Source: Leucoraja ocellata (lineage: Eukaryota). Taken from it: 64,000 nucleotides of DNA. Below are positions 20,126 to 64,000 of the stretch, one piece after another. Location: contig JAWMAR010000079.1 of the NCBI GenBank assembly GCA_036785375.1, positions 5,022,001 to 5,086,000 of the forward strand. Reading direction: 5' to 3'. Numbering within the stretch: position 1 is the first letter of the stretch; every line of letters starts with the position of its first letter. The notes below the pieces were generated by a model, which saw only the letters and a list, made by a program, of their open reading frames with translations, was not told the DNA's origin and did not search any database. A program made the translations under genes and the position numbers.

Positions 20126-20899
20126 GTCTTTATATAATCAATTTCAATGTCTCTGTCACAAAAAAAAACATAGCAGACAATTAAATTCTCAGGTAAACAC
20201 ACTCTTGTGTTAAAGTTAGTGCATCCTCTAGTTGGATGATTATTCTGTATCCAGTAACCCACTGAATAATAACCATAGAAAGTTCCTATAAAACTGCTAG
20301 CACCCTCTTAATTCTGTGGCATACCTGGAGAGGAGGCAAGAAAATGTCAAGGGGTTAAAAAGTAACTGCTGTTTGGAGAAATTGATATATCACGTTTGCT
20401 TAAAAAATTGATTTCATGGATACATAGATAGTAGGTGCAGGAGAAGGCCATTCGGCCCTTCGAGCCAGCACCGCCATTCAATGTGATCATGGCTGATCAT
20501 CCACAATCAGCACCACATTCCTGCCGTATCCCTTGATTCCGCTAGCCCTAAGAGCTCTATTTAACTCTCTTTTGAATGCATTCAGTGAATTGGCTCCTCT
20601 GCCTTCTGTGACAGAGAATTCCACAAATTCACAACTCTGTTATTTCCTTTTGCAGTGCCAGGTGTTTAAATGTAAAGAAAAATAATTCCAGTAACTTGAA
20701 CGAACATATAATTTAATAATATATATTAATATATAATATAATTTATGTATCAACATGTCAAATACTTAGGTTTAATTATATAATTCACAAGTTATATGTT
20801 AATTTGCTCATTTTTAAAGTGGTAAAAATGGTTGTTTATGTAACAAAGTTCTTGTGAGTATTTATGGTAATGCAACATTAAATAAACACGGGGTCCTAG

Positions 20900-41287: not shown

Positions 41288-41417
41288 CATGAAGAGAATA
41301 CTGGAGATCTCCTAATGCAGTACCTTGGAACCGTCTGTGCCAGCACCATGGTCTGCAGGCCCATTCAGCTTGCCTTCAAAGTTGACTCGAGAGTCAAACC
41401 CAAGTTGGGACACACTG
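41288..41417 (+). CDS. CTC1: CTC1 exon 18/19 (HEENTGDLLMQYLGTVCASTMVCRPIQLAFKVD...)
   Basis: tttgcAG acceptor, GTAAGT donor; 130 nt, phase 0-1. Matches human [21 protein letters not shown]. Confidence 0.94.
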
Positions 41418-44400: not shown

Positions 44401-45419
44401 AGCAGTTCAACAAGGTTGCTCACAAACAAGATGTTTAGGACTTGGCAATAAAAGCTGACTTTGTCACAGATGCTACATTGTAGAACATGTATTTTCAGGG
44501 AATTTTATTTTCATGGTGCTAGTTTTGGAAGGGGAATTGCTCAGGATACACAGTTCAGAGATCTAAAGAAGGTTTAATTACCTATCTTGGTTGGAAGATT
44601 TTCTCTCTCTGATAATGCAGAATTGCGTCAGTACTGCATTAAACGATTGCCTCCTAAATACTTGAAGTCTTCATCTAAGTCTCAAATAACATATGGCGTT
44701 GCTTATGATTAGTGCATAATCCTTCCTGGTTATCCTTGATATTTTAGCAGCCTTTGATTTTCTTAACCTTAGTTGGGTCTCGGGGAAAGAGTACATTTAT
44801 TCCATAAATGTCAAAATTCCATCCAGTAAAACATTGCTTAATATGAAGCCATTGTCTTGGGTTTCAATTACAAATGCAGTTCTTCTAGCACTGAATCTCT
44901 CCCCTATCCCAGGCAGAACTTAAATGTTTGCAACTATGACACCCAGCTAGATCCTCTGCCAGAAACACGGTCAACCACCATAATACTACCACTTCAATCC
45001 ACAGATGAACCCCTCATCCTTCCCATTGCCTGCAGGCACAACTATTTAAATTATCTTCTAATTAGCCTCCTATCTTCAAATCTCTGCAATTGAACTTCTC
45101 CAAAGATCTGCTTCACACATGAGGTTCTGTTCATTTGTTATCCTCCTATATTTGCTGACTTCATTGGATGTTGGTTTGTCAATGTCTCCATTTTCCCTTG
45201 AGTTTAAATTCCTCCCTGACACCTCTTATCTTCACTTTTAATCCCACAGTCTGAGACCTCTGCATTCTACCAACTTTTCTCTTGAGAAAGCCTTACTTTT
45301 CTTGCCCCATGATGAGTGCCTCTGAATTTGGCTATCAAGGCTCTCACCTCTGGAAATCCCTTGGGTTCTGGAGCTCTGTTCTATAAGACATTTCAACACC
45401 TTTTTATCATCTATCCCAA

Positions 45420-45655
45420 CGTAGAAACAGAACTGCAGATGACGGTTACTACCCAAAAGGACACAAAGTGCTGGAGTAACTGAGCAGCTTGGGCAGCATC
45501 TCTGGAAGGCATAGATGGGTGACGTTTAGGTTTGAGATCCATCTTCGAAACTGAAGATGGGCCTCGACACAAAAGGGTCTGAAGAAGGATCTCGACCCAA
45601 AATGTCACCCATCCATCTTCTCCCAGATGCCGCCTGGCCTGAGTTATTCCAACAC
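45420..45655. mobile_element. Penelope-derived fold-back repeat with hammerhead-like core
   Basis: gggt-ctgaagaaggatctcgacccaaaatgtc-accc at about 45576-45611, with inverted arms. Confidence 0.72.
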
Positions 45656-48600
45656 GAGTCTTTTTAGTGTCATCATCATTGGCACATGATTATATTTTGT
45701 GCATAGCAACGTTTTGTTATGGTAAACGCATCACGTCAATGCAAATTGTTCTTGTAATTTGTCATGGATATAAGAATGATTCCAAAATTTGCAATCTTCT
45801 GCTTCTGAGGCAAATGTACCATCATTTGGCCAAAATTGGCACCTTTAAATGATCCATCTTTTGCTGATATGCATAATAAATCCAGGGTCTGTTCCCATTT
45901 TTGATAAATTTAAAGTGTGACTATCGTGCAAGTTGTATTTAAAATAATGTTCCTTAGCCCTATTGTGCAATGGAGGACTAACCCCAGACATAACACAATT
46001 GAACTTGTAGCCCCTGATGTTAACATGCATTGGCATATGTGAAAACTTGGTATTCTGTAGATTATTTTGCTGAGTTCTCCATTTGAGGAAAAAACTAGAT
46101 GCTGGTTTAAATCGCAGGTAGATACAAAATGCTGGAGTAACTCAGCAGGACAGGCAGCATCTCTGGAGAGAAGGAATGGGGACATTTCGGTCTGAAGAAG
46201 GATCTTGACCCGAAAAGTCACCCATTCTTTCTCTTCAGAGATGCTGCCTGTCCCGCTGAGTTAACCCAGCATTTTGTCTACATTTGAGGAGGCAGTTGAA
46301 GAAAATCACCTAATGATGTTGCCAGGTGTATTTCCTCAAAGGGGAAATCAAGAGATTGTGACCCTGTAGCTGATCTTGCAAAATATCTTGGCAAATGGCA
46401 TTGGTAGAAGGCTAAGTACAGTTTACATATCAACCTTTGGGGGGCATAAATGACACAGTGCAGGGGTACTCAGCGGGTCAGGCAGCAACTCTGGAGAACA
46501 TCGGTCAGGACCATTTTTCAGACCGGTTGGGGGATGAGGGTAAGAAAGCTGGAAGAGAGAAGGGGCAAGAATACTTCAAACTTGAAGGGTCTCAACACAA
46601 TGATCTGTAGAAGTGCCGAAACGTCACCTCTTCGTGTTCTCCAGAGATGCTGTCTGACCCGTTGAGTTACTCAAGCACTTTGTGTCTTTTTTGTAAACCA
46701 GCATCTGCAGTTCCTTATTTCCACACCATCTGTAAAATGTGACATGGGAGGCAGCCATTTGGTGCCATTTGCTTTGCTCCAAGATCAAATCCAGCAGGGT
46801 TTTCATGTTCATTCTTGTAGCTCTTTAATGCAAGCCTCATATTTTACATTAAATTGTATATTTAACTGATTTCAAAGCAAACACATTTATAACCTTGGAT
46901 CTAGATGCTTTATGTGCATTTTATCTTTGAAATGTAATGCTGTTTAAATGCAGATGTGTCAAACATTGTTAGGTCATTGGGAGTAGCAATCAAAGACCTG
47001 AGATTTGATTCTGGTGGTGTGGATTGACATAGTATTGTTAATTAAGATATCTGTAGGGGTTCTTATCACCTTGTAATATCATCACTGGATCTTACACGTT
47101 CGCCCAAAACAGTTGCTCCAGGTCCAAAAGCCAAAGCATTTGATAATACTGAAGAACTGTGGCATTGTAGAGATATCTCTGAACTCTTTTTGGAAAGATA
47201 GTTGATGTTATAGGATGTAGAAGGGTTTCAGCCCGAAACGTTGCCTATTTCCTTTGCTCCATAGATGCTGCCGCACCCGCTGAGTTTCTCCAGCACTTGT
47301 GTCTTTAGTAAGCCTCCACCTCCAGACTAGATTGGAGTGCTTTTAAGGGCCAGGAATGGTATTGTTGGATCTTTGAATGGTCAGAGTTGCATTGGCTGTG
47401 AGCTGAAAATATTTCCATCCCTATAACTAGGGTAGCTCAGGATGAGCAGAGTTCATCTGGAAGTCCCCCACAAAACAGAATTCATCAAAACCTCTGGAAC
47501 ATCTGCACCTCTCATTTGTTTATATTTTTGAACCCTTTTCTCCTTCATCTTGGATTGATTGAAGGACACAAAGATTGAGAATAATCGGATATTTTACACA
47601 TTTCTAGATATTGCTGATTGGGTCCCACTGTTATTCACAGTTTTTAACACCTTGGATAGAAAGGTGACAATAATTATACTCAGATTGGCCATTGGTGTAA
47701 ATCTAGGGGGGGGAATGTTTGCTGTGAGGAAAGCTGGGAAATCCAGCAATGTGCATATTAAGCTAATGGCCATGGTAGTGGTGGATGGAGCTCAATATAG
47801 AAAACGTGAGGTTTGATTTGAACATTGGAATTGGGGGGGGGGGGGGGGGGGGGGGTGACCAAATTGAGGATTCAGAGGTGCAGAAGGGTCTTGGTGTGCT
47901 GGTTCATGAAATGCAAAACAATTAATATTCGGGTACAGTAGCAATCTGGAAGGCAAATAATATGTTGATATTGATTGCAAGAGTTGGTATGATATGTTGG
48001 TATTGATTTGACTAGATTAATTCTGGGGTAAGATTTTGTTTTATGAGGAGAGAATAATTAACAAAGACTCCATGGGCCACAGACGAATGAGATGCACGAT
48101 TCCGCGAGCGATTGCTGGAAGCTATTTTCTTTAGATAATGACTATTGGCAATGACGTGAGGTTTTTTTGTTACCTAATTCTCCTCATGGGAAGATTGTGG
48201 ATTCGGAATATTTTAAGGCTAAGAATTTTTCCCGCTAAGAATTGAAGGATACGAGAAATGAATAGGATACAAGGTCAATTGTGAATCTTGTGTGGGAAGA
48301 AACTGCAGATGCTGGTTTACACTGAAGATAGACACAGAGATGGAGTAACTCAGCGGGTCAGGCAGCATCTTTGGAGAAAAGGAATAGGTCGAGACCCTTC
48401 AGACTGAGTGTCGGGAGAGGGAAATCAGAGATATGAAAACGTACATAGAACAAATGAATGAAAGATGTGCAAAAGAATGAATCAAAGCCAGCAAGGATGA
48501 TCAAGGAAAGGTGGAGCCCACTATGGTCCATTGTTGGCTGTGGGAAAGATGATAACGAGTGATAACGAGCAGGACGACAGTAATCTTATTGACTTGAGGG

Positions 48601-51159
48601 GCTCTGGCTGCTTTTACTTGTTATGATCTGTTTATTCATTTTCTACCTCGTGTTCGTTGCTCTCACTTTGTTTGTTCACGCACATCTCAGATCTTTGTCC
48701 ATTCTGCCCAATTGCCGGATCAACTAATTCTTCTCCTCTCCACACATGACAAAATTTCTAAACATGGCTTTTTAATGTCTGTTAATGCTGCCTTGGTGTT
48801 TTTCATAATTAAAATTATTTTTTTGCTTTAAAACCTTATCGTACGGAAATTATTGCTCAGCTTGGAACAGAGTAGTTGGTGAACCATTAAACGTGTGAAA
48901 TTTGACTCATGATTTCCAGTTAGTGTTTTTGCAATGGTATTCATCTGTTTCATTTGATGTGGCATTGTTCAAAGAGTCCTTTGTACTTATGTGCTGTAAG
49001 TACAAATGGGTTGTTCATTTTGTTTTGCTGTGAACACATTAGGTTCTAATTATAGTCTATGACTATAGAACTACAAATATGTGCACTGACTGGTTTGACA
49101 GTAGATGCCCTCATCAGGGACAGTTTTTTTCTTTGTTATATTTTTCTCTGCGGGTTTTACCTATGAAGGAACAATGGTCTTTGTCTCAATTCCTTGTATC
49201 AAACCACTTTGTGTTGTTACAGTGATCCATCTAAAATTGATTTGACCAGATACCCTTTGCCTTTATCAAAATTGTGTCCATTTGCCTTTGACTCGCTGTA
49301 AAAGTCGTTTTATTCTATCAAAGTCGTAATTATAAAATGGTTAAACATTTAATATTTTCTCAGCTCCATGGGTTTCATCCCATTATTTCCAGTTTGCCTT
49401 CTTAACTATGATATTGTATTGTAACTCTGCAGCTTTAACCTCAAACATAGCACAAAAGCCAGCCCAAATGTATTTTCTTTTTAATCCTTCATTGGTGCTA
49501 TTACCTGCTCAGTTCTTTATTTCCTAAAATATATCCACCCGGTCGGTCGCCTATTGCACTGTCCTCTTCATTGTAAAGCCTTTTTCTTTAAAAATACTTC
49601 CTCTCCCTCAAGCAAGTGCTCTCTTGATCCATGAGAAGAAAGTATATGGTAAAGAAAACATGGTTTACTGAAAAACTGTGTTATCTGCCGAATTTAATAG
49701 AGGAGTCGATGCCATTTGGCTCATTCACCTAGTCATAAGTGAGATGAGCAGAATTAGGCTATTCAGCCCATCAAGGCCATTCCGCCATTCAATCATTTCT
49801 TTCCCTCTCAATCCCATTCTCCCCATAACCCATATTAATTAAGAATCTATCAATCCCTGTCTTAAAAATATCAATTGATGGCCTCCACAGCCTTCACCAC
49901 CCTTTGACTAAAGGTAGTCAGTCCTTGATGAGTTGCTCGGCTTCACCGTGTTGGTCTTCCTCATTCAGGACTAGAAAGAGGTGGTGGAAACTAACCCAAG
50001 TAGGGACCATGCATAGCAAGGAAAATGGTTTGGTTCTGGTAGTATTATGGGAAAAAATGCATTAGTTCCAAAGGGAATTCAGAAGCTATTTACCTGTCTG
50101 CTGCCAGAGAATGAGTTGGGGGGAAAAATAGCCAGGCCCTAGTTGTTTGGAACAAAAGAGGTTGAGGGAGCATTTAATCAAGTACGTAAAACGTGAGAGG
50201 CTTGAATAGACTGAACAGAAAGGACTAATTTCTTTAAAAAGCAATGTTAATAATTAGTGACATAGATTAGTAGTTAGTCCTAGGATTAAAGTTGAGGAAA
50301 AATGTTGTCCTGGAGGAGAGTTGTTCTGGACATTTTTTGTGTTAATGTGGAGCTCGGAAAATACTTGGGGGAAACTGCTGTGACCTCGCGCTGCAGATAT
50401 AGAGGTGAAATGTGGGATTCACCTTTAGCTTTTTTTAAAATGGTCATCGTGAACAAAGTGGGATTTTCTGTGATTTTTGCATACATAGAGCACAGAACGA
50501 AAGGTTAAGTTTGTAGAATTCTAAAGGCTATGGAATAAACTCTTTGCAACGTAACTATCCATCTTTTGATCAAAGTTAGCAACTCCATACTCCAGATGCA
50601 GTATATAGTTCTATACATTTTTAAGTGCTGATTGTTGAGGAATGGCAACTGAAGCTGTGTATACTTGGTATGTGAGTAGTAATTGTTGAGGCAGCAACAG
50701 TGCCACTCTGACAATAGTGTTGACAATAATGAGTTAACCTAGTTGTGCATTCCAAAAGCGAGAGTGAAGATAGCGGTTACTTCAGTATGTCCACACTCTC
50801 TTTTGCAATCTCCCGGTGACCTGTGCTAACTTGTAAGTTAAAAGGGTTAATTTAGTTAACATTGATTCAAAAGGGACGTGGCACTTTGACTACAGTGGAA
50901 TTTTTCACTTGTGCCTGCTATTGTGTATCTTGCTCCAGGCGTCCACACTCGCATGATTTACTGCACGCAACTTGTTTAAAGATCCATTAGTCATGTTAAA
51001 TTGTTCTCTATGTATTCCTTTAATTGGAGCAAATGTCAGAAGTGGCCATAAAATTAGTGAATAATAATTACAGCACTTGGATTGATGAAATTGTGAAGGA
51101 TCGTATGTATATCACAGTATCAATTTACTGAAAGTTGTTTAATAACTGAAAGTCGAAAG

Positions 51160-52000
51160 TGAGACTAATTAGGTCTTTGAGTGGGTAGCTAACAAGTGGG
51201 GTGCCACAGAGATCAGTGCCAGGTATTCACCGAACATTATTGATCTTGGATGAACAGATGAATTGTAATATATCTGAATTGGCAGGCTTTATGCAGTTGG
51301 GTAGGAGGGTGATTGTAGAGAAGTCCAGGTTGATTTGGACACGTTCAGGACATGAGCAGATACATAGCAGGCGTGGTTTAATGTAAATACATTTGAGCTC
51401 TTCTACTTTGGTAATAACAGGAAGGTATATTATCTGAATCGATCGATTGGAAAAGGGAGAGGTGCAACAAGACCCGGATGTCCTTCTGCACCAGTCACTG
51501 AAAGTCAGTATGCAGGTAATTAAGAAGGCCTAAATTGCAAGAAGATTAGATTATAAAACAAGGGATATCTTGCTGAAATTGTACAGTACCTTGGTGAGAT
51601 GCGCCTTGAGAATTATGCATGGTTTAGATCTGCTTACCTGCAGGCTTGACTGATATGAAAAGAGAGTGGCTCAATTGGGCTTGTATTCACTAGAGTTTGA
51701 ATTCTGAGAGGGGCTATGGTAGACACCTACATCATTTTAACAGCACTGGCCAGATCAGTTGCTGGAAGGATGCTCTTGAAGGCCAAGTAGCCCAGGGTCA
51801 GGGCTCGCAATGTAAGGATTTGAGCCGATGAAGATGAAAAGCTTGTCAACTAATGTGATTAAACTTGTGGAATTCTCTACCACTGAAGATAGTTGAATCC
51901 AAATCATTAAATTTATTTAAGGAGGCTTTCTTTAGGCTAGAGGAGCCAAGCTATACGTGGAGATAGATCTGGATCATGTTGATTGGTGGAACAGGCTTCA
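51160..52000 (+). mobile_element. Old degenerate CR1 RT/3' fragment
   Basis: SGVPQRSV, LLKLYSTLVR and LGLYSLEF remnants. Confidence 0.65.
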
Positions 52001-52214
52001 AGTTTAAATGAAACACCAAATGCTGGAGTATCTCAGCAGGACAGGCAGCAGCTCTGGGGAGAAGGAATGGGTGATGTTTTGGATCGAGACCCTGCAAGTT
52101 TAAATGTCCTGCCACTGTTTCCATTTGTGCTTGTATGAACAATATCTAGTTTTAATTAAGGTTTGTAATAGCAGTGATGGCATGAGGTGACTAGACTATC
52201 GTAAAACTTGGTTC

Positions 52215-52765
52215 ACATTTAGTTTACCGCCACATGTACCAAGGGTATAGTGAAATGCTTTTTCTTGCGTGCTATCCAGTCAGCGGAAAGACAATACATA
52301 ATTGCAATTGAGATGTCCATAGTGTACAGATACATGATAAGGGAATCATGTTCAGAGCAAGGCAAAGTCAAATTTATAGATTGGCTGAGGGTCTCCAATG
52401 AGGTAGATGGTATCTTCGGATCGCTCTCTAGTTGGTGATAGGATGGTTCAGTTGTCTGATAATAGCTGGAAAGCAACTGTCCTTTAATCTGGAGGTATGC
52501 GTTTTTACAATTCTGTACCTTTTGATGGTGGGAGAGGGAAGAAGAGGGAGTGACGGCGGCTGAGACTCATCCTTGATTAAGCTGGTGGCCTTGTTGAGGT
52601 GAAGTGCAGATGGAGTCGATGGAAGGGAGATTGTTTTTTGTGATGGTCTGGACTGAGTCCTCAATTCTCTGCAATTTCTTGTGGTCTTGGATTTAGCTAT
52701 TCGCAAGCAATACTGTGATGCATCCCAATAAAATGCTTTCTACGGCACATCGGCAGAAGTTGTGA
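52215..52765 (-). mobile_element. Rex1/Babar-like LINE 3' fragment
   Basis: Paralogous to 9270-9790; KATSLIKDES..KRYRIVKTHTSRLKDSCFPAIIRQLN. Confidence 0.8.
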
Positions 52766-54067
52766 GTTCTACAGATGTGCCATAACAAGCGTTTAAATGT
52801 ACCATCGTTGTATGCTGCATCCTATAAATGATGCCAGATTTAATGTGTTCAACTATTAATTGTCTTAATTATTAATTACTGGGACAGTTGAAAGTGGACA
52901 TTAAATGCTGTATTTTCCAGTCATATCCAGTAGGATGATTAGTGCATTGAAGCAACAGTGTAAACTCTATAGAACAATGTTGTCCATAGAAGTCCAAATC
53001 CAAGTCGCAATGGGTTTTGGTGAGGGGAAGCCAAGATCCCAAGAATGTATACTGAAGATTGATTGAGCTTGCTATGTTTTCGTTTCCATTTCTATTTACC
53101 CCTGGTTTTAAAGAAGCTTTGACGGAATTCTGAAAAACAGCTGGCTTCTGTTTGGAATGAAAATAAAATTTTCGCTTGCTGCATCCTGTTTCACCCCTCC
53201 AAAACAAAACTTGAATATTGTGTTTGGAAGTTTGCCAAATGCAACTAAAATTCACTTTGTAACCAGTAATACAGTGAAATTGTATCAATATCTGGATGTT
53301 ATTCTGGTTAGTACGTTGGATCATGCTGTTGTCAGATCATGTTGCAACTGCAATAAAGCTTTCAATCAAGATAGTTTTATCTAACTTGGTGATGTAGAAC
53401 CAATCACTCACCTTTCACTGTGTCTAACAAGCATGCAAATCACCATTATTTGATTAAATCACGAGATCTAGTTTTTGTCATTCTGCGCAGATGCGGATGA
53501 GTTTCTGGGCAGGTAAATCTGAAAAATAGGGCACTTTTTTTTAAATGCCACCTTTTTTGCTTGTGTTCATATTTCTGATTTGCCATGGAGTAATTGGTTT
53601 AAGATAAGCTGGAATTCATATCAGATGTGACCTTGTTTGCATCCCATTGATCTGGTCACAAATGTGCTGATTTCCCCCCCCCCCAGATATATTCATATTT
53701 GGTTAACAAATGCATAGATGTTTGTGGTTGCCATAATGTGTTAAGATGTTAAGGTGTGTGATCAATGGATTATGAAGTGTTTACTGTGTTCAGTTCATTC
53801 TTGGTTAATCTGTAATTAATTTAAATATTATTAAAGTATGAATATTAATATGTATGAAATAGTTTAAATGTGGAAGACAAACTGTACCATAAAAGGTAAG
53901 ATGTTTGATTATTTGATGATGGTGGAAAAAATGTAATTCGTATAACTCTTTGGATCTGTTAATTACAAACAAAAAACAAAGTTCAGCTCAATCAGATTAT
54001 AAAATAACGTCCTGTACCACCCAGAAAATATGGAACTTGTTCTTTATGTGGAATGTGGTGTCATCCA

Positions 54068-55542
54068 CAGTGCCCTCCATAATGTTTGGGACAAAGACCC
54101 ATCATTTAGTTATTTGCCTCGGTACTTCACAATTTGAGATTTGTAATGGGAAAAATCATATATGGCTAAAATGCACATTGTCAGATTTTATTAAAGGCCA
54201 TTTTTATACATTTTGGTTTCACCATGTAGAAATTTTGGCTGTGTTTATACATAGTCCCCCCGATTTCAGGGAACCATAATGTTTGGGACACATGGCTTCA
54301 CACGCATTTGTCCAGGTGTGTTTAATAGTCTTTCCTCCACTTTCCATCACCTTTGGAAACTTTTATTGCTGTTTATCAACATGAGGACCAAAGTTGTGCC
54401 AATGAATGTCAAAGAAGCCATTATGAGACGAGAATCAAGAACAAAACTGTTAGAGACATTAACCAAACCTTAGGCTTACCAAAATCAACTGTTTGGAACA
54501 TCATTAAGAAGAAAGAGAGCACTGGTGAGCTTACTAATCGCTAAGGGACTGGCAGGCAAGAAAGACCTCCACAGCTGATGACAGAAGAGTTCTCTCTAAT
54601 AAAGAAAAATCCCCAAACACCTGTCCGACAGATCAGAAACATTCTTTGAGAGTCAGGAGTGGAATTGTCAATGATGACTGTCCGCAGAAGACTTAATGAA
54701 CAGAATTACAGAGGCTACACTGCAAGATGCAAACCACTGGTTAACTGCAAAAATAGGATGGCCAGGTTAGTTTGCAAGAAGTACTTAAAAGAGCAACCAC
54801 AGTTCTGGAAAAATGTCTTGTGGACAGATGAGACGTAGATTAAATTATATCAGAGTGGAAGTCTGGAGGAGAGAAGGAACTGCCCAAGATCCAAAGCATA
54901 CCACCTCGTCTGTGAAACACGGTGGTGGGGGTGTTATGGCCTAGGCATGTATGGCTGCTGAAGGTACTGGCTCACTTATCTTCATTCATGATATAACTGC
55001 TGATGGTAGTAGCATAATGAATTCTGAAGTATATAGACACATCCTATCTGCTCAAGTTCAAACAAATGCCACAAAACTCATTGGCCAGCAGTTCATTCTA
55101 CAGCAAGACAATGTTCCCAAACATACTGCTAATGCAGCAAAGGAGTTTTTCAAAGTTAAAATTGGTCAATTCTTGAGTGGCCAAGTCAATCACCCAATCT
55201 GAACCCAATTGAGCATGCCTTTTATATGCTGAAGAGAAAACTGAAGGGGACTACCCCCCAAAACAAGCATAAGCTAAAGATGTTCAAGAAGGAACTACAG
55301 ATGCTGGAAGATCGAAGGTACACATAAATGTTGGAGAAACTCAGCGGGTGCAGCAGCATCTATGGAGCGAAGGAAATTGGCAACTTTTCGGGCCGAAACC
55401 CTTCTTCATCAGTTTCACAAATGCTGCTGCACCCGCTGAGTTTCTCCAGCTTTTTTGTGTACCTTCGATTCTCCAGCATCTGCAGTTCCTTCTTAAACAA
55501 TTAAATAATGGGTCTTTGTCCCAGACATTATGGAGGGTACTT
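54068..55542 (+). mobile_element. Decayed Tc1/mariner (DD34E) DNA transposon with IR/DR-type ends
   Basis: TIR cagtgccctccataatgtttgggacaaagacccatcattta at 54068 and its inverse at 55502-55542; internal DR at 54274-54290. Transposase remnants WTDE, KHGGGGVM, QQDNVPKH and WPSQSPNLNPIE carry stops and frameshifts. The 3' part is replaced by a Penelope-derived insert. Confidence 0.93.
55283..55498. mobile_element. Penelope-derived fold-back repeat inserted into the Tc1 element
   Basis: Inverted arms aagaaggaact(a)cagatgctgga...tccagcatctgcagttccttctt. Confidence 0.75.
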
Positions 55543-55627
55543 TTTGTGGTGTCATAATGGTTTTGAACGTGTTTTCATTGCATTGCCTATATCATATGAA
55601 CATCAAGATTTTCTCTTTCTTGTAAAG

Positions 55628-55770
55628 AAACCTTTCAAATGAAGATATTGAGAAGTGGAGATCACCAGTATTGCACCAAGATGGCGCCTGGCTTGTCTTT
55701 GACTTGTTTGCACATAAAGGAAGTGGACTATCGAATGCTTTGCCACTTGGGAAATGATAGACTGATCTGA
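55628..55770 (+). CDS. CTC1: CTC1 terminal coding exon 19/19 (ETFQMKILRSGDHQYCTKMAPGLSLTCLHIKEVDYRMLCHLGNDRLI*)
   Basis: Polypyrimidine tract with an aAG acceptor; phase 1 fits the previous exon; TGA at 55768-55770. Matches human EPPRLQRFQCGE..THVNPRLRLSCLSIRESEY. Absent from the ORF track. Confidence 0.9.
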
Positions 55771-56067
55771 TAGTTATTGGAATTCTTTGACTTGTGCAGC
55801 TGTAGCCTAAGAAATAAGCCCTCGCATGAATCAAGAAATGATTGTCGTTGTTTACAATGTGTTGCTAACAGTGGAATAATTGATACATCGCAGCCCGTTG
55901 AGGGAAAAGAATATTATAATGAATTAAATTGACTGGTTTTACCCAGTGTGTTGTTACAAAACAATACTTTAATTACCATTTGTAATTAACAAAATCCCCA
56001 TTAAATGCAACATGGAATGATTTAAATTGTAAATATTTATTTTGACAATGTACAGTGTATAACTGAA

Positions 56068-56073
56068 AATAAA
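56068..56073 (+). terminator. Probable CTC1 polyadenylation signal AATAAA
   Basis: First AATAAA after the stop, about 300 nt downstream, followed by GT-rich gtgtattgtgtcc at about 56101. Confidence 0.6.
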
Positions 56074-58864
56074 ACTGTTTTATTTCAACATTAATTAGTT
56101 GTGTATTGTGTCCTTGCATTAAATTATGTTTTAGTTTTTTCATGTGGTATAGGAAAAGCCATTGGATTTGAATAGCCAATAATTTGTTGTTGCACTTTCA
56201 GCTCAACAAATGAAAACTGTTTCATCCCTGTTTTGGTACAGATAGTATCCACTATATCCAATGACTTTTTCTGTTAGTTGCCTGTTTACAGCCTAGAAAG
56301 CCTGGTGTTATTTTGTTGTATCTTCCTGCTCCATACTCCCTGCTCACCCTTCCAACGAAACATGGTTGTCAGTGGTGTTATTAATAGAAATGACTTGAGT
56401 CGATGAGTCTGTATCTTTGCAAGTGCTAATATTGAAATAGTTTATGAAATCCATGTTGACCAAAGTTAAAAATGTATTGGAGCAATCTGGCCAAGCAACC
56501 TGGCTTCCTGGCTGATTGTAGTGTTCTTCAGTGCTTTTGTCCTTGTAATGTCAGTTTTCAGTTGAGCTTAAATTGGATCAATTCATGTTTTTATTTGGAT
56601 CTCTGACTTTGAGCAGAGAACTGCCAAATGTTGGGTACAAAATGTGAACCAATACTAATTTTCCTTAAATCTAAAAATCCTATATGCCGACTTGGAAATT
56701 ATGTGAAATTGTTGTAATGACCCCACTTAATATCCATTTGAGGTTATGGGTTTGTGATCATTCCAGGGGAAGATGACTAGATTCATTTTTCATTGGAATT
56801 TGCATGTTGCCTGAAGCCTTTTTCATATTTCTGTGTATATGAATACATTTTTGAACATTGGAGTAGAATGCTTGGCAACTTGTGCATGGAAGTACAATAG
56901 TATTGTTTGCTAAGAGATAGAATATTGAAATTAATATTCTTGAATTCGGGTACTTTGAGTGACAACCTTTTTTTTTACCCAGGTGGCATTTTGTATCCCT
57001 TCGAACTCGAAACTGCTCGAGTTCTGATTTAGCAATTTATTTCATAGATTTTCTTTAATTTTAAAAAAAAGTCTGTTTGTAGAGTAAATTGTGTCACCAG
57101 TTAATGAAACAGTATACACCTCCATCTTGAAAAGGCCCATATATATCATGGTATTGCTCCAAGTATAACAAAGATTTTATTAAATTGATTTAATCTTTAT
57201 GAATTTGTACTATTTCAAAGAGAGCAACTCCATTCTGTTGCTGTAAGATTAAAGATAATTGAGTGTTATTGTCTATGAATAAGTGTTGAGGTTGCAAGGT
57301 TAACTTGAGTTTTGTGGAAGTTGTGTATGAAATTAATTGAATTAATTTTGGAATTCACTACCAAGAAGCCGTGGAAGCTTGGTTGCTGATTATATTCAAG
57401 AGAGCTCAATCGATTTTTCAATGATGGAGGAATTACATAATCTAGGGTTTAGTGAGGAAAATGAGCTGTGGTACAAGACCAGCCATGGTAATAATCAATG
57501 TCAGATCAGGCATAAGAGGGTGAATAGCTTGCACCGTAGGTAGTGTTTTGAGAATGGTTTATGGTGAATGGCACTTGCCTTGTGAAACAAATCTGGGGTT
57601 GAAGTAGGTTAAAATTGCTTCTTTCTTGGAAGGGAATGCAATGAGCACCATTGGAAGGAAAAGGTAGAACCCAATAAAGCTACTGGGTGTTAATACCTGA
57701 AAATAAATACTTGCACTTGTATATAGTGTTTCACAACGTCGGGGCATTCCCAATTGTTTGGCCTATGAAGTGAATTTTTGTTTAAATCTTGCAATGCAGG
57801 AATATGTAATGTGTACAGGAATTAATCATGTGACTTATTGGAATATTAAGTTGCTAAATCCTGCTACTGACCTCGAAGCAATGTATAATTGTTATTGACG
57901 TGATGGATTTCAATGAATTTGGCTGAGAATTATTTAAAAGTGCACTGTAGTTAATGTTATAACCTTTTGATGAAGATGTGTCTTATCAATTTGGTTTGCT
58001 GCTTGACTTTACCTCAATTGGATTTTGAAATGTGTTTCTGGTCTTTTATATTAATTTGGCTTGAATTTAAGATGTATCAAACCTCGAGTGGCACAATGTA
58101 TATGGGGAGAAAATTAAAATATTTTCTACTTAAACTTGCTTTCTGGATTTGCTTATGTAATGGAATTAGTACACGCAAAATTATAAATGTTCTAAATAAG
58201 CAACAAAGAAAAAAATTGCCAATTGTATCTACCCTAAGATACATTATTTATGATATTTGGGAAAATACTGTGTTGAAAAATGTGGTTTCTACTTGGATTT
58301 TTTTCAACCAACTTGGTGCTCTCAAACTGTTACCTAAAATCAATCTGAAAGTTGTCCATTAATGTTCCACGATCATATTTTGGAATGGCCTTTCTTAGAG
58401 AGATTTATAATTGGGTAGCATTCAAAAAGTTGTTAATTTGCACCTTTTAATTTCTGTTCATGAATAATTAATTGTTTAGAATTTGGAAAATGGGAATCTT
58501 GATGACTTGAAGGTATTTTTGGAATATTCACTTGTGCTTCCATAGAAAATTCCTCAGAGAATATGGCTTCTGTGAACATAATGAGGAGCTGTCTGTGGGA
58601 ATTCCATAGAACCAATGAAGTGAAAAGATAAATCATCTTTGTTGATCCCTTCCAAAAGATCCAACTTTGCAAATGCAAGTGACCACATTGATTATCTTCA
58701 TTGAATATTGGGCAGACCAAGTATTGGTTGGAATTTTCGTATGCTATCAAATTCTTCTGCTAAACCACTTTTTTTTAATGGAAATCAAATTGACAGAAAC
58801 TTGCCAATGTTGGAAGAATGAGCAAAAATTGAGAAATCCTAAATCAGATCAGCAAAGGGAAACA

Positions 58865-59127
58865 AACACCTTGGGCAGTCGCACCCTAGCGGCATAAACA
58901 TTGAATTCTCCAATTTCCGGTAGCCCTTGCTGTCTCCTCCCCTTCTCAGCTCTTCCTCAGCCCTCGGGCTCCTCTTCCTTTTTCCTTTCTTCTCCCCGCC
59001 CCCCCCCCCCCCCCCCCCCCCATCTTCCATCAGTCTGAAGAAGGGTTTTGGCCTGAAACGTTGCCTATTTCCTTCGCTCCATAGATGCTGCTGCACCCGC
59101 TGAGTTTCTCCAACATTTTTGTTTACC
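58865..59127 (+). mobile_element. Penelope-like element 3' end with ORF stop, poly-C tract and hammerhead-like motif
   Basis: HPSGINIEFSNFR* (stop 58921-58923); ctgaagaagggttttggcctgaaacgtt at 59035-59062; 16-bp flanking duplication at 58849-58864 and 59128-59143 (1 mismatch). Confidence 0.8.
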
Positions 59128-59387
59128 TCAGCAAATGGAAACATATGTTGAGATACCCATGGTGCCCATGGTGAGAGCTTCCTTTTCATGCCTTTTCCCT
59201 CGGTCATAGTTCTCATTGTCCATGCTTGGTTTCCATCTGCTATACAATTGGTAGGAGGATAATCTTTACATGACTTAAGAGATGCCTCGCATGTCTTCTA
59301 ATTCTTCAAGATGTACCAGATTTGAGGTGCATCCTCAGTTGACATGGACAGTTGTTCTATGCCAACAGGACAATTTACACCATGATT

Positions 59388-59530
59388 ACATAGAAACATA
59401 GAAAATAGGTGCAGAAGTAGGCCATTTGGCCCTTCGAGTATGGCTGATCATCCAAAACCAGTATCCCGTTCCTGCTTTCCCCCCCCCATATCTCTTGATT
59501 CTTTTACCCCTAAGAGCTAAATCTAACTCT
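59388..59530 (-). mobile_element. CR1 3' tail fragment with (acatagaa)n end
   Basis: ataggtgcagaagtaggccatttggcccttcga..atggctgatcatcc. Same family at about 7815-7910 and 20420-20640. Confidence 0.7.
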
Positions 59531-60399
59531 GTGGAGATTTGTCTTGACATTAGAAATGTCGAGAATGGACTCAGCATGCCAAATGGCATGTTAAACTCTA
59601 ATTGTGTTGGATTTAAATATGTGACCATGTTGGATAAAGGTTATTTTGGCACTTAAACCCAATGGCTGTCTGCTGTGTTAAATAATGGACAACAGATTGG
59701 AATTCTTTGCTTCAATTCTCTCCCATTTACCCTGCATCATTGGGATTTTGAAACTTTCGGAAATATTAATGGGAATATTTTTGGAGGCGGGAGAGTAGAA
59801 AAAATAACCTTTTTGAGGAAATGGCGACAGTAAGAAAACAGAAGAAAGTCTAAATTATTTCTCGGGTAAACACAATGGTAAAACATGGAATTCTTAACCA
59901 TTGATTAAAAATGGCCAATCCTTTGAGAACAGGGACTCCATGTGACTTGATCACGAGTTAAATTGAAGCAGCTCCCTTCCCCCTATGTTTAAATTCCATT
60001 CCCTCCTCCCTCCATATTATCTTCATGAAGAAAATAATCCTTGTAAAGCCATTTCCGTCCACGGGAGGAACTATTTTTTCTCTCCCTAACCATGGATGTG
60101 TTTTAATTGTTGGAAGAATAGAGGGGGAAACGACAAAGGAGATTTCCTTGGGGGAACCCCAACTGGGGTTGGGGGGGGGGGGGGGTGGGGGGTTGGAGCA
60201 AGGGTCTCCCTTAGGGGGGGTGAGAACAGGTCCAAAGGCATGCATTCACAACTCCCTCCCCCTTCCCCCCCCAATGGGTCTGTGTGTTTCTGCTGTGGGG
60301 CAAGGGGTGGGTCTAAAGCCTTGGTCCACCACCTGAGTCCAGGGAGGGAGGGGAGGAAAATGTTGCAATTATTTCGCAGCGTCGTTGCTGTCAATCAAA

Positions 60400-60961
60400 G
60401 GGAGCCCGGGCGCCTGTGTGTGAAGAAGCTACATGGCGGCGGCGGTGGTTGCGTGAGATCCACTGCACTTCCAGTACACCTAATGCAACTTTTCACCAAC
60501 TTCCACCACTGCAAGCCAGACTGCGCCTCCTCTCTGTGCAAAAAAAAATCTCCCAGGCAGGAGTCACCCCAGACCTGGGATTGCACAGACACCCCAGCAC
60601 CCCCAAGTGTTTATATATTTTTCTAAATCACCCTTATTTTTTTTCTCTCCTCTGTGGCTCTGTGTGTTTGTGATTTTTTTTTCCTCTCTTTTTCCGGCAA
60701 GCTGGTGTCGTTGTTTTTGAGCTTTGCAGTCATGGCGCACCTCCATTTTTGAGCGACTTTTGTGCGCTTTTCCTTTCCACCCCCAGTGTATGTTTTTTTT
60801 TTAAAAGCCGGGATCAAAAAGGAAAAGAAGCGAGACATGATTTTTTCCAACTCTTCGACTTTTTGGAGGCTTTGAGAAAAAGAAAGGAATCGGTTTCGAT
60901 TTGGCTAAGTTTTTAGTCGACGGTGCGGGGACTAGCTTGCGCCCAGCTCTACATGGAACAG
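60400..60961 (+). other. CHD2: Putative first (mostly non-coding) exon of the CHD2-type gene; 5' end approximate
   Basis: Strong donor CAG|GTATGT at 60961/60962, then a 230-nt intron to a pyrimidine-rich acceptor at 61190-61191. Human CHD2 also has a non-coding exon 1. Confidence 0.6.
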
Positions 60962-61401
60962 GTATGTTTACAGTAATTTTACTCGCCAAAATGTTTATTT
61001 TGAATAAAATATTTAATATAAAGGAGGTTAGTCGGCGATTGCGTAGTTAAAATTAATTGTGTGGATTCGGGGTGACTTTTTATTTGATGCGTTAAGTTTC
61101 AGGCATGGCAATTTCTTGGCATGGCTTTTAGAGAAATGTACCTGTTCGTTTGTTGTTTTTCTGTGTTTTTAACGGGGCTGTTTTTGTGTAGAGCTTGTCG
61201 GAGTGCGACAATGGTATCGAGTGCTTAAACAATGTGGCTGCTGCGTCAGGGTTTTGCAAGTCGAGCAGCGGGCAGCTGCTGAATCCGGCGGACTTGCTCG
61301 CTCGCCGCGAGTTTGACAGGGCTCCACGGCGCTCCCTCGCTACCCATCCACGTGTAGCCCAGGACAAAACCGAGCCCCCAAACTCCCCTGGCCCCAACAC
61401 C

Positions 61402-61460
61402 ATGTCCAGCCAGGGCAAAGACCCAGAAGACGACGGCTCTGAGCACAGCAATGCTTCCAG
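61402..61460 (+). CDS. CHD2: First coding segment of a CHD2-type chromodomain helicase (MSSQGKDPEDDGSEHSNAS|); exon spans 61192-61460
   Basis: ATG in the context caccATG; donor CAG|GTAGGA in phase 2. The peptide aligns with the human CHD2 N-terminus [20 protein letters not shown], which also ends at a phase-2 intron. Only 19 codons are visible, so a CHD1/2-family paralog is not excluded. Confidence 0.75.
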
Positions 61461-64000
61461 GTAGGAGCTCTCAATGTGCGTGCGTGTGTGTGTCTCTCCC
61501 TCTCCAGCTTCCCATGCCCTGTTATTTTGGGGGTTTGAACATTGTTTACCTTCCTATCTATGCTTGCCCCCCCTCGATCTCTCAAGCAATTTTTCACCCT
61601 TTCGACCAAATCTTTAATCGATGACCTTGAGATTCCTAAAAGCCCCACCCTGTTTTTTTGATCGCAGTTTCCCCCAACTTATGATATGCCATTTGGGCCT
61701 ATATTCAGCAATGGAAATACATTGCAAGGCCTTCGATCCTCCTTTATCGTTTATTTTATATTATTTCACCGAATATATTCTTTCCGTTCATGTTGCTGGA
61801 GTAAGATGACCTTGTGATTGCTGTTGCTGCAATGCACCATTTTACTGACAATGCAGACGGCTTTGAGAACTTGAGGATTTGGTGTCCATAGTAAACCATA
61901 GAAGTAAATTGTAGTAAATAATATACAAGAAAAAGTTGCATGAATGAAAAAAAATTCATATTTATAGATAAATTAAGAAATCCCTGTTGGAAAGTTGCTT
62001 CTGGGTCTCTATTTTTATCCCCACCATACCATTTCACTTTATGTCTTCGGGTATTTTGTAAATTTTTATCACAATTTGGTGAAACGTTTACCATGCTGGT
62101 ATCCCTATCTGCTGAATTGAAATAATATGGTACATACTATATACTTAGGCTTCTTGTACCATGCATCCATGCCCCCGTGCTACTAAAAAGGTTTTAGCCT
62201 TTCTGGAAAATAATTTAGTGTCTTGAATGTCCCCTTTTAAAACTTTTTAACTTTTTTAATTGTTTTAATTACTTCACATCATCTTATACCCCTCATGTTA
62301 TATGTATAATCTGTGTATGTTTCTTTCAAGACATGTGGTAGATGCATCCATACTGCAAAAAATAAAATAAATTTCTCAAATGAATTGAAGCTTTACTTTG
62401 AAAGATCACAAAACTTTTTATTAATTGTTGAACTTTTGACAGGTCAATGGATATTGTTGCCTCCTAGACACCTGGCTACAGGTGGTAGTTTTAATAGGAA
62501 AGATGTTAACCTGGATACCGAATATTTTGTTGTGAATTTGTATCTTTAAAACAAAAATAATTAATCTGACAATTTCTGTGACTGTCAATTGAAATATTTG
62601 AATTGCATTTAGTTTTGATTTGAGACTTTTTAATTTAACCATCCTTTAAAGGATTTTTTTAAACTGATATTTATTTACTGTTTCTAATACAATCATTGAA
62701 GATTTTCCTACCTGCCATCACATCACCCGCTCAAGGTATATTGAGACTACAGATCATTTACAAAAGGATGGACTGTTTAATAGTTTGTTAAGAAATTAAT
62801 ATTGAATTGAACTTTCGGTGTTTTCAATTTAAGTGTGAATACATGTTTATTTTTGCGTATTTACGTGAAACATGTCCACCATGGCCATTTTTGGGTTTCA
62901 AATTTGGCTGATCTCTTGGGTGGTCATCTTAGGTTTGATTTTCCATTACTGCCATGCTAAGATTGCCCTTGGGAACACTATAGAACTCTTGACCTACTAA
63001 GACCACTGCCATGGTCCACATGGTGACGTGAACCATTGTCACCATTGACCTTCAAGTGATTGCCCCCTATACCCCTATTTACATGGGCTTTATTGTAATT
63101 CCTTATGTGGATTTCTGGATGACCTCTGAGCTTGCCTGAAAGATTGGTGCCCATCCATCTTGGTCATCTCTACTTTGGGGTGGGAGGAACAGCTTTTTGA
63201 TGGAAAGAGAATCCTTTAGTTTTCCCGTTGTAAAAACTTTCCAGCAATACGGAAATTGGCCATTGAAACAGGCCATCCATAGACCTGGATGATTGAGTTC
63301 CCTCCAGGACATTCTATCTTCAAATATTCTCAAATCAGTCATTAACTGCAAGCAGACATTGATTCCTTCCAGCTGTGCTCCAGAGAAGGGAAGATCCTTG
63401 TCCATGGTGGTGCAATATTTGGAATGGAACATCTGTGTTTTCCATTGAGGCAAAGTATTGGCATTCCAAAGTTGACCTTCACCAATATGCAGCTTTCCTG
63501 TATCTGCCAAATTCCTCACCTCAAAACGGATGCAGATATAGGCATTCCTCCAGATGATGCTTGTTTCAAAATAAATATAAATAAAATCACCTTGCATACC
63601 TCGGGCGTTGGTGTCATCATTACATAGCCTTTAAGAAATTGTCGACAGGTTGATGGTTCATGAGTTTAAAGTTAGTTTGTGTTGCACTGCCTTTAATTGG
63701 GGCAGGTGACTAGTTGCAATGAGTGTCTTCATAACCAGCTCACTTTCATTATCTTCAGAGTACTTAATGTGAATGATATTTTTTCTTCTATGTGTGGTAA
63801 GTGGAGAAACTCTTGATCGTCATTACACGACGCCATTGAACTTGTGGAAAATTAGGTGAAGGGAGCTTTGTTTGTGTCATGACAATTGAGAAGGACAAGG
63901 TTGTGAAGATTGCTTGCACGTTGAAAGCGCTGGTAGATTCACCAAGAATGTCCTAATTTGTTAATGGTAGAGATTGCTTAATCAGATTGCAAGATATTTG

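Follow-up and report, generated by a model that had tools for sequence, protein, structure and literature searches.

A candidate CHASERR-type AUGG cluster ahead of CHD2 in the skate Leucoraja ocellata, possibly reached by CTC1 transcripts

Does a cartilaginous fish carry the long noncoding RNA CHASERR ahead of CHD2 and, if so, in what form? CHASERR (LINC01578; 1810026B05Rik in mouse) lies on the same strand as CHD2, less than 2 kb from it, by synteny (PMC7798263), and was present in every vertebrate its authors examined (PMC6841665). It has a very G/C-rich promoter, an AUG start in TISU context, and five exons, of which exons 1 to 4 are 63% G/C; its last exons contain AAGAUG in 16 of 16 species (usually followed by a purine), AAAUGGA in 11 of 16, and AAUAAA in 16 of 16. 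Its transcript is independent, polyadenylated, and broadly expressed and represses CHD2 in cis; when the motifs are blocked, fusion to CHD2 exon 2 is induced. In mouse, the Chaserr motifs link definition of the last exon to its polyadenylation and hold down fusions with Chd2 exon 2 (bioRxiv 10.1101/2025.05.28.656657). We found no report of CHASERR in cartilaginous fish in the literature searched. A first-pass annotation of 64,000 nucleotides of Leucoraja ocellata DNA (the window) had proposed an ATGG-dense segment, 58,400 to 59,935, as the elasmobranch CHASERR 3' exon, to be compared with, among others, elephant-shark CHASERR; the LncLOOM set contains no cartilaginous fish and hence no such sequence.

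The neighboring genes are those that the annotation had named (Table 1). Upstream, PF15489 matches are ordered across the exons as in the profile (Pfam search), thorny-skate CTC1 (P0006) matches the window with 78 to 100% identity per exon (tblastn), and 18 GT-AG introns were located; the gene, which is also similar to solved CTC1, is thus confirmed as CTC1. It spans 0.5 to 56 kb, runs in the same direction as CHD2, and is expressed in skate fins (baseMean, 1185; PMC10115646 SI Table 5). The context of its poly(A) signal at 56,068 ranks at the 90th/95th percentile of 106 hexamers, with three TGTA upstream, and the GC fraction of unmasked 150-mers in its last intron peaks at 0.49. Downstream, none of the best 120 of 270 matches to the N-terminal region is named CHD1, those with a CHD name being CHD2 or CHD2-like, and on sequence evidence the gene is confirmed as CHD2, not CHD1 or another CHD; neither the RefSeq identity nor the N-terminal matches gave any indication of a paralogue instead of the orthologue. 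The CHD2 protein (P0001) starts with MEQ followed by SLSE, for which the junction after 60,961 is needed, and a CpG island covers about 60.5 to 61.75 kb. A 780-nt stretch in CHD2 intron 2 carries 15 CCAT. The G-run ahead of CHD2 is possibly a Pol II pause element; G/C runs like it are found elsewhere with repeats. In the thorny skate, CTC1 and CHD2 each lie on a 26,768,200-nt contig, and since that species shares the linkage, it is not very recent. Gene identifiers near Ctc1 in the skate annotation (Selenos and Isg20) suggest that the order of genes here differs from the gene desert of mammals.

Table 1. Features of the CTC1-CHD2 interval, in window coordinates
Feature	Position	Strand	Remarks
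CTC1 coding exons to penultimate exon (41,288-41,417, strong donor)	493-41,417	+	Gene 5' end before window
CTC1 last intron, 14,210 nt, longest in window	41,418-55,627	+	No CpG island or G/C-rich stretch
CTC1 last exon, stop ~55,770, strong poly(A) signal AATAAA at 56,068	55,628-56,085	+	Putative 3' end
AT-rich gap	56,086-58,983	+	GC 0.35, CpG o/e 0.26; no repeats detectable in window; internal-exon signals scarce
Young SINE-type repeat with C-run	58,984-59,128		Other in-window copies up to 93.5% identical
Unique spacer, 254 nt	59,129-59,382	+	AAATGGA 59,133, AAGATG 59,308, 4 ATGG, 4 CCAT
Second dispersed repeat fragment	59,383-59,530		Matches 20,409-20,568 and 7,816-7,856
Core AUGG cluster, 384 nt, candidate homologue of CHASERR motif-containing region	59,531-59,914	+	Unique within window
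ATTAAA poly(A) hexamer	59,904-59,909	+	Sole AATAAA/ATTAAA from 58,200 to CHD2
G-run (G4-like)	60,165-60,192	+	250 nt past ATTAAA hexamer
CHD2 exon 1: TISU-like element 60,429, ATG 60,953, donor after 60,961	60,400-60,961	+	Putative start
CHD2 exon 2, in-frame open from first base	61,192-61,460	+	100% identity to Leucoraja erinacea RefSeq CHD2

All 14 ATGG tetramers listed in the annotation over about 780 nt are present, as are AAGATG, AAATGGA, and ATTAAA at the places given for them. The expectation of about 3 ATGG holds for single-base composition (2.9) but not for the window's own rate (3.84) or dinucleotide shuffles (5.55); 14 copies were reached in 2 of 3,000 such shuffles, with P = 0.024 in a one-strand scan of the 64 kb. 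A plus-strand bias over the 780 nt was not borne out (14 ATGG versus 10 CCAT; binomial P = 0.16). The proposed segment in fact shrinks to 384 nt near its end, here called the core, the rest consisting mainly of a stretch with just three ATGG (58,400 to 58,983), two repeats, and a spacer. The second repeat, which we take to be CR1/SINE-like, supplies 1 of the 14 ATGG. AAGATG and AAATGGA, which the annotation had cited among the CHASERR motifs, both lie outside the core, each present once and no more often than chance would give (0.48 and 0.20 expected over 59,129 to 59,914), the former followed by a T and the latter adjoining the SINE-type repeat. The spacer, possibly part of an exon, has acceptor-like sites at 59,311 and 59,369.

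Within the core, AATGG occurs eight times (59,564, 59,582, 59,661, 59,684, 59,768, 59,820, 59,874, and 59,910) against an expectation of 0.76, and no pentamer in the window is in stronger excess; it ranks first of 1,024 pentamers there, and no equally extreme non-simple pentamer is found in any of 332 tiles of 384 nt, the next-best 384-nt window on either strand having five AATGG. The strands differ, with nine ATGG versus three CCAT and eight AATGG versus two CCATT (P = 0.025 for the latter). In a Poisson scan over a prespecified 2-kb range, with AATGG being one of six motif variants examined, P was 1.5e-4 for AATGG, whose eight copies are reached by 0 of 60 other 2-kb tiles, and 0.0074 for ATGG, which 1 of 60 tiles matches. 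RRATGG, of which the CHASERR motif-containing region has multiple copies, is unremarkable (four copies, reached by 10 of 60 other tiles; P = 0.067), and exact-motif counts over 59,531 to 59,914 gave no AAGATG or AAATGGA. Two 7-mers are doubled, AATGGAC (59,564 and 59,684) and TGGAATT (59,698 and 59,886). The cluster ends at the ATTAAA hexamer, which lies ~0.5 kb upstream of CHD2 (exon 1 from about 60,400) and has a weak downstream element (U content at the 11th percentile, GU at the 35th). A good 3' splice site is missing ahead of the core, where the best adjoining acceptor scores 1.1.

The core is non-coding: the longest plus-strand stop-to-stop frame across it has 84 codons, and none of 13 frames from 56.7 to 59.9 kb reaches the Pfam cut-off. 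Other sources of the cluster were considered and rejected. There is no array, and the longest exact internal repeat is 10 nt, as opposed to a degenerate satellite or tandem duplication; a transposon or coding origin finds neither a second copy in the window nor a Pfam match at the curated cut-off; and no known RNA family matches at the Rfam gathering score in 41.4 to 64 kb. The predicted fold of the core (z = -2.24; 2 of 100 shuffles) is too weak for use as evidence.

As for orthologues, the core was compared by eye with one sequence, mouse Chaserr exon 5, which has 7 AUGG in about 330 nt. In the ordered k-mer comparison that the annotation had called for, made with this exon only, the colinear exact chain (68 nt or more at k = 6 and 44 nt at k = 7) looked striking but was rejected as evidence because it is within the null, being reached in 123 to 296 of 1,500 cases and in more than half if the window is left free. 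Two 7-mers are doubled in both sequences in like order (by eye and post hoc), as happens in 41 and 27 of 20,000 null cases with mouse-like ATGG contexts planted, and in 60 and 19 of 4,000 with the window free (also post hoc; P, 0.002 to 0.015). Similarly, a post hoc 7+5-nt match stands directly before the poly(A) hexamer in skate and mouse and is reached by 0 of 268 other pre-hexamer 25-mers; with a 40-nt window, 21 of 268 reach it and significance is gone. Two gapped patterns (1 of 100 and 0 of 100 shuffles) were set aside, having been built after both sequences were viewed, such that these are not fair P values. By-eye k-mer matches are cheap in any case, because the CTC1 last exon does as well against mouse exon 5 (8 matches of at least 8 nt; 291 of 4,000 nulls).

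We consider the core probably homologous to the motif region of the CHASERR last exon, on the strength of its sequence and place: position, strand, AUGG density, and terminal hexamer fit an elasmobranch CHASERR 3' exon for 59,531 to 59,914, but not for 58,400 to 59,935. Like CHASERR, the core lies directly upstream of CHD2 on the same strand, with a 3' end within about 2 kb; it is as dense in AUGG (9 in 384 nt) as mouse exon 5, a poly(A) hexamer ends it, it is without coding signal, and its first AATGGAC is 340 nt from the hexamer, compared by eye with about 300 nt in mouse. Unlike CHASERR, it lacks AAGAUG, has ATTAAA with a weak downstream element where the known genes have AAUAAA, is separated from CHD2 by about 0.5 kb instead of about 2.2 kb, and has the protein-coding CTC1 3.4 kb upstream instead of a gene desert (~200 kb).

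The remainder of a CHASERR gene (G/C-rich promoter, TISU start, and internal exons) is also not visible in the sequence scanned. From 41.4 to 59.9 kb, outside the coding last exon of CTC1, there is neither a CpG island nor a TISU-like site with at most 1 mismatch, and GC exceeds 53% in no unmasked 150-mer; within the gap it stays at or below 43% per 150 nt, in contrast to skate CHD2 with its clear CpG island. A G/C- and CpG-rich patch at 17.4 to 17.9 kb, in a CTC1 intron 42 kb off, was checked as a possible CHASERR promoter and contains no TISU-like site with at most 2 mismatches. No exon-like acceptor/donor pair occurs in 56.09 to 59.0 kb at thresholds that admit 13 of the 18 true exons; three pairs, all in the spacer, compare with 6.8 expected over the gap from the intron background, and one pair in the gap passes a strict threshold, under a splice model that was trained on only 19 to 20 sites and overlooks 5 of those 18. 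Acceptor-like sites are found at 56,983 (score, 11.1), 59,132 (6.7), and 59,369 (5.8).

The reading we favor, with a rough probability of 0.42, is that CTC1 transcripts reach a CHASERR-type core that serves as their distal 3' end and guards the CHD2 promoter, such that CTC1, standing where the front of the CHASERR gene would be expected, may have taken over its role. The core would share its origin with the CHASERR last exon that contains the motifs, and would work at the RNA level, defining a 3' end 0.5 kb before the CHD2 promoter. With no lncRNA promoter of its own visible, it would be reached by CTC1 transcripts that skip the proximal poly(A) site, either in a long 3' UTR, for which the AT-rich gap is a candidate (or else a read-through zone), or by a splice from the donor at 41,417 past the CTC1 last exon. 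The AUGG cluster would promote cleavage at ATTAAA 59,904, stopping read-through and CTC1-CHD2 fusion, for which CHD2 exon 2 would supply the acceptor, and tandem CTC1 transcription ending by the CHD2 promoter would provide the interference that CHASERR provides in mammals. The identities of the genes, their arrangement, the excess of motifs, and the lack of CHASERR-type features on the 5' side are shown; that the core is transcribed, that its hexamer is used, and that CHD2 is affected are inferences, as is homology. The reading gains support because synteny foretold the position of the core, AATGG is in excess, and the density is mouse-like, and because CTC1 is expressed and on the same strand, with a gap poor in promoter and exon signals. 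It is weakened because the proximal CTC1 poly(A) site looks strong and that at 59,904 weak, and because the core has no AAGATG or AAATGGA, RRATGG is unremarkable, and the chains are not significant; additionally, the insertion of two repeats just upstream of the core suggests relaxed constraint.

Alternatively, though in our view this is rather unlikely, the core might be the last exon of an independent CHASERR orthologue, a lncRNA that represses CHD2 in cis as in mouse, its promoter being either of non-CpG type and located in the 3-kb gap or placed within CTC1 introns, the exons then interleaved. Whatever speaks for homology of the core counts here too, as does the occurrence of CHASERR throughout the vertebrates examined for it; the acceptor-like sites could serve such a gene, an exon from 59,132 opening with AAATGGA and including AAGATG, and the splice model is one that overlooks true exons. 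However, the acceptor at 59,132 is a product of the 3' edge of the young repeat, the gap has fewer exon-like signals than an ordinary intron, and its composition is set against the G/C-rich promoter and TISU of CHASERR.

It is improbable that the cluster arose by chance or is a promoter-proximal DNA element unrelated to CHASERR, such as one with YY1-type ATGGC sites. The window has other clusters of similar size (384-nt stretches with 10 CCAT at 62,943 and 9 at 49,629), there are four ATGGC in 59,531 to 59,925, the published motifs are unenriched, the chain test was negative, and the AATGG and doubled-7-mer statistics were picked after looking. Against this stand the AATGG result in the prespecified 2 kb, unmatched by the other tiles, the strand bias of AATGG, and the presence of just one full AANATGGC site. 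Finally, that a rearrangement placing CTC1 by CHD2 deleted the 5' part of CHASERR, leaving an orphan last exon to decay in disuse, would account for the lost AAGATG, the variant hexamer with its weak downstream element, the missing acceptor, the two repeat insertions, and the Selenos and Isg20 neighbors, but is the least probable, given a linkage that is not very recent and a motif excess that is yet sharp in an insertion-free core.

The reading of the core as a distal CTC1 3' end has partial parallels. In DUS4L-BCAP29 and PPT2-EGFL8, tandem pairs separated by short intergenic stretches and giving regulated read-through fusions (bioRxiv 10.1101/2025.05.28.656657), as here, a coding gene precedes on the same strand, no more than 6 kb away, and fusion would link its penultimate exon to downstream exon 2; in contrast, skate CTC1 has a second, CHASERR-like candidate 3' end, and its splice from 41,417 (phase 1) to 61,192 (phase 0) would be out of frame, with a stop after about 40 codons. 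With yeast SRG1-SER3 (PMC6841665), the point in common is that same-strand transcription from upstream could repress a downstream promoter if it ends in, or ~0.5 kb from, that promoter, but SRG1 is a dedicated short noncoding RNA without an RNA motif cluster.

A bolder version, which we regard as doubtful, is that in skates, and perhaps in all cartilaginous fish, CTC1 is the CHASERR transcription unit, with the motif exon as its distal 3' end. If so, either CHASERR of bony vertebrates would be a fossil of an ancestral CTC1 locus, keeping the promoter and 3' regulatory exon while the coding copy moved, or CTC1 would have been captured between the CHASERR promoter and last exon. A hint, though no test of this, is that the only plus-strand AAGATGGC in the window is at 55,678 in the CTC1 last exon, 50 nt past the acceptor, about as in mouse Chaserr exon 5 (0.002 expected per given 100 nt); it reads K-M-A, found in all six complete elasmobranch CTC1 C-termini.

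CHASERR belongs to a very small group of lncRNAs for which a mouse knockout is lethal and a human disorder is known, and it is an antisense oligonucleotide target for CHD2 haploinsufficiency, while it is still debated whether its RNA sequence or mere tandem transcription and termination represses CHD2 (PMC6841665, discussion). Should the skate merely have a compact CHASERR, the finding would be a modest range extension. If the reading through CTC1 is true, a lineage that kept the last-exon motifs but has an ordinary mRNA feed them would amount to a natural experiment, in which the conserved unit would be the motifs plus termination by the promoter, with exons 1 to 4 dispensable, and the element would reach the base of the jawed vertebrates, giving this lncRNA a testable origin.

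Within 58,400 to 59,935, the interval that the first-pass annotation had proposed as a CHASERR-like terminal exon (CHASERR being the lncRNA in tandem upstream of CHD2, with AUGG-type motifs in its last exon), the 14 ATGG tetramers, AAGATG (59,308), AAATGGA (59,133), and the poly(A) hexamer ATTAAA (59,904) were all present as listed. Its expectation of about 3 ATGG in 780 nt holds for single-base composition (2.9) but not for dinucleotide shuffles (5.55); at least 14 were reached in 2 of 3000 dinucleotide shuffles of the ~780-nt span, and the cluster has a P value of 0.024 as a scan over one strand of the window. The anticipated strand bias was absent over the whole span (P = 0.16), since the 14 ATGG are accompanied by 10 CCAT. 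The window's densest 780-nt cluster, 15 minus-strand ATGG (15 CCAT on the plus strand) at 62,626 to 63,405 in CHD2 intron 2, served as a control. Moreover, the interval proved to be a composite of two repeats, a spacer, and a unique segment, the core; only the last retains its CHASERR-like designation and is a real feature, narrower than first noted. AAGATG and AAATGGA are missing from the core, and their spacer copies are at chance level.

Features of the CTC1-CHD2 interval and of CTC1 introns
Feature	Position	Content
Inverted repeat, CTC1 intron	2,097-2,260	81 nt, 99% complementary, 2-nt loop
G/C-rich patch (<=69%), CTC1 intron	17,441-17,850	CpG-rich (o/e ~1); single copy in window; probably a young mobile-element fragment
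Tc1/mariner-like transposase remnant, CTC1 last intron	54,069-55,270 (+)	Sleeping Beauty HTH match below cut-off
Inverted SINE pair	55,277-55,541	hairpin arms 55,281-55,375 and 55,405-55,499, 85% complementary
SINE-type repeat, young	58,984-59,128	other copies in window
Spacer, 254 nt	59,129-59,382	4 ATGG, 4 CCAT
Second repeat	59,383-59,530	other copies in window
Core, unique sequence, 384 nt	59,531-59,914 (+)	9 ATGG vs 3 CCAT; 8 AATGG vs 2 CCATT

AATGG is the most over-represented of the 1024 pentamers in the core (0.76 expected). Elsewhere, 384-nt windows hold at most 5 on either strand, none of 60 other 2-kb tiles reached at least 8, and none of 332 tiles contained a non-simple pentamer as extreme. 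Six motif variants were examined, AATGG among them; scan P values over a pre-chosen 2 kb were 1.5e-4 for AATGG, 0.0074 for ATGG (matched by 1 of 60 tiles), 0.067 for RRATGG (10 of 60), and 0.29 for ATGGA. Origin as a tandem array was ruled out, there being no array; the window holds no further copy of the core, none of 13 frames tested from 56.7 to 59.9 kb matched Pfam at curated cut-offs, and the core had no Rfam match at curated cut-offs.

The core was compared by eye with mouse Chaserr exon 5, as given in a supplement of PMC7798263, against nulls simulated from window sequence; being read by eye, the match values are lower bounds. AUGG density is alike in the two (9 in 384 nt and 7 in ~330 nt). 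In the ordered k-mer comparison, made with mouse exon 5 only, the colinear shared chain was equalled by 123 to 296 of 1500 null queries with the core fixed and by more than half of the nulls with the window free to move, and was not significant. AATGGAC and TGGAATT each occur twice and in the same order in both sequences, a post hoc statistic equalled by 41 and 27 of 20,000 nulls given ATGG contexts like those of mouse, and by 60 and 19 of 4,000 when the window was free. Just 5' of the hexamer, both sequences share a match of 7 nt plus 5 nt; this statistic, likewise post hoc, was equalled by 0 of 268 other pre-hexamer 25-mers, by 21 of 2179 ATGG-containing 25-mers, and, once the window was widened to 40 nt, by 21 of 268. 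By way of caution, the CTC1 last exon gave eight by-eye matches of at least 8 nt to mouse exon 5 (equalled by 291 of 4000 nulls). These doubled 7-mers and the pre-hexamer match lend modest support to homology. Given its pre-specified place, a motif excess that is extreme, favours one strand, and stops at a hexamer, and this modest shared detail, we consider the core likely (roughly 80%) to be homologous to the CHASERR motif region, with the missing canonical motifs and the negative chain test weighed against it.

According to PMC7798263, CHASERR lies <2 kb from the CHD2 start and has five exons and a very G/C-rich promoter, with AAGAUG and AAUAAA in 16 of 16 species and AAAUGGA in 11 of 16, no cartilaginous fish being among the 16. 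PMC6841665 describes Chaserr as an independent transcript, preceded by a ~200-kb gene desert and ending ~2.2 kb ahead of Chd2, that works in cis, probably by transcriptional interference. In a preprint (bioRxiv 10.1101/2025.05.28.656657), clustered RRAUGG motifs link last-exon splicing with polyadenylation, blocking them leads to fusion to Chd2 exon 2, and Chaserr exons 1 to 4 are 63% G/C, with a TISU-context AUG at the start. Because the G/C-rich promoter, the ~200-kb gene desert, and an AAUAAA at the end of the core were each sought in the skate and not found, the core does not qualify for listing as a CHASERR gene. The stretch from 41.4 to 59.9 kb lacks a CpG island, none of its unmasked 150-mers exceeds 53% GC, and TISU-like sites with at most one mismatch are confined to the coding last exon of CTC1. 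At thresholds that 13 of the 18 true exons pass, a splice-site model built from 19 to 20 real sites in the window gave no exon-like acceptor/donor pair in 56.09 to 59.0 kb and three in the spacer, versus 6.8 expected over the CTC1-CHD2 gap. The acceptor closest to the core (59,554) scores 1.1; better acceptor-like sites lie at 59,369 (5.8) and 59,132 (6.7), the latter made by a SINE edge. The hexamer's downstream element is poor. A very strong acceptor-like site at 56,983 in the gap (11.1, 99.7th percentile), with no donor scoring >5 within 500 nt, could be the start of a long terminal exon or chance.

CTC1 (19 exons) lies upstream on the same strand as CHD2, with a 14.2-kb final intron, a last exon beginning at 55,628, and a strong predicted poly(A) site at 56,068. 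Since in mouse the motifs work at the RNA level, some transcript must cover the core, and with no visible promoter the simplest source is CTC1, which is expressed and lies 3.4 kb upstream on the same strand. We tentatively suggest, at somewhat less than even odds, that CTC1 transcripts take in the core, either in a lengthy 3' UTR or as an alternative terminal exon. A separate lncRNA driven by a non-CpG promoter, against which the scarcity of exon-like pairs speaks, seems rather unlikely. A chance cluster or DNA-level element, compatible with the negative chain test, is harder to square with the AATGG excess, and we think it improbable. Least probable is a decaying relic, which would suit the missing canonical motifs but not the dense AATGG.

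The sole plus-strand AAGATGGC in the 64 kb (55,677 to 55,688), 50 nt past the last CTC1 acceptor, resembles motif 1 of mouse exon 5 (~45 nt in there). It is also TISU-like with one mismatch, codes for K-M-A, and is kept in six of six complete elasmobranch CTC1 C-termini; two of eight elasmobranch CTC1 proteins compared have other C-termini. The inverted SINE hairpin, ~130 nt ahead of that acceptor, accounts for a MIR529 match below gathering score. Between one of its arms and the SINE at 59,036 to 59,128 complementarity is 94%, and such pairing could loop out the CTC1 last exon and poly(A) site. Selenos, Isg20, and CHD2 presumably lie together on human 15q26, and CTC1 on 17p13. The skate genome paper lists Ctc1 as LE05223, Selenos as LE05227, and Isg20 as LE05216. 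In thorny skate the contigs given for CTC1 and CHD2 agree in length, which points to one chromosome without itself indicating adjacency. In the literature searched, which takes in few subscription papers, neither a CHASERR from cartilaginous fish nor CTC1 adjoining CHD2 is described; database annotation may already include a lncRNA model for the skate.

The downstream gene is CHD2, as first supposed: the 61,342 to 61,461 frame matches the RefSeq CHD2 of Leucoraja erinacea, the little skate, at 100% identity and the thorny skate protein at 97%, and no CHD1-named protein is among the best 120 of 270 matches to the N-terminal region. The RefSeq protein start (MEQ/SLSE) sets the end of exon 1 (ATG 60,953, donor after 60,961) and exon 2 (61,192 to 61,460), whose acceptor is the weakest of 19 real ones scored (1.7, leave-one-out). 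From a CpG island at ~60.5 to 61.75 kb and a TISU-like element at 60,429, we infer a start site near 60,400. A G-run (60,165 to 60,192) lies 3' of the hexamer; pause sites rich in G that follow a poly(A) signal reportedly help termination, but similar runs occur elsewhere in the window, alongside repeats. Elasmobranch CHD2 models carry a 73-residue N-terminal extension from the exon-1-end ATG (60,953 to 60,961 plus 61,192 to 61,401), kept in skate, manta, and zebra shark; the models compared from elephant shark, gar, bowfin, and frog lack it.

Judged from sequence, the core is a probable new form of the known CHASERR element and may function like the CHASERR last exon. If CTC1 RNA does enter it, the core would be a second cleavage site, shielding the CHD2 promoter and curbing fusion. 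A 41,417-to-61,192 splice would be out of frame, so that CHD2 protein could arise only by re-initiation at 61,402, and a fusion transcript joining at CHD2 exon 2 would lose the ATG of the 73-residue extension.
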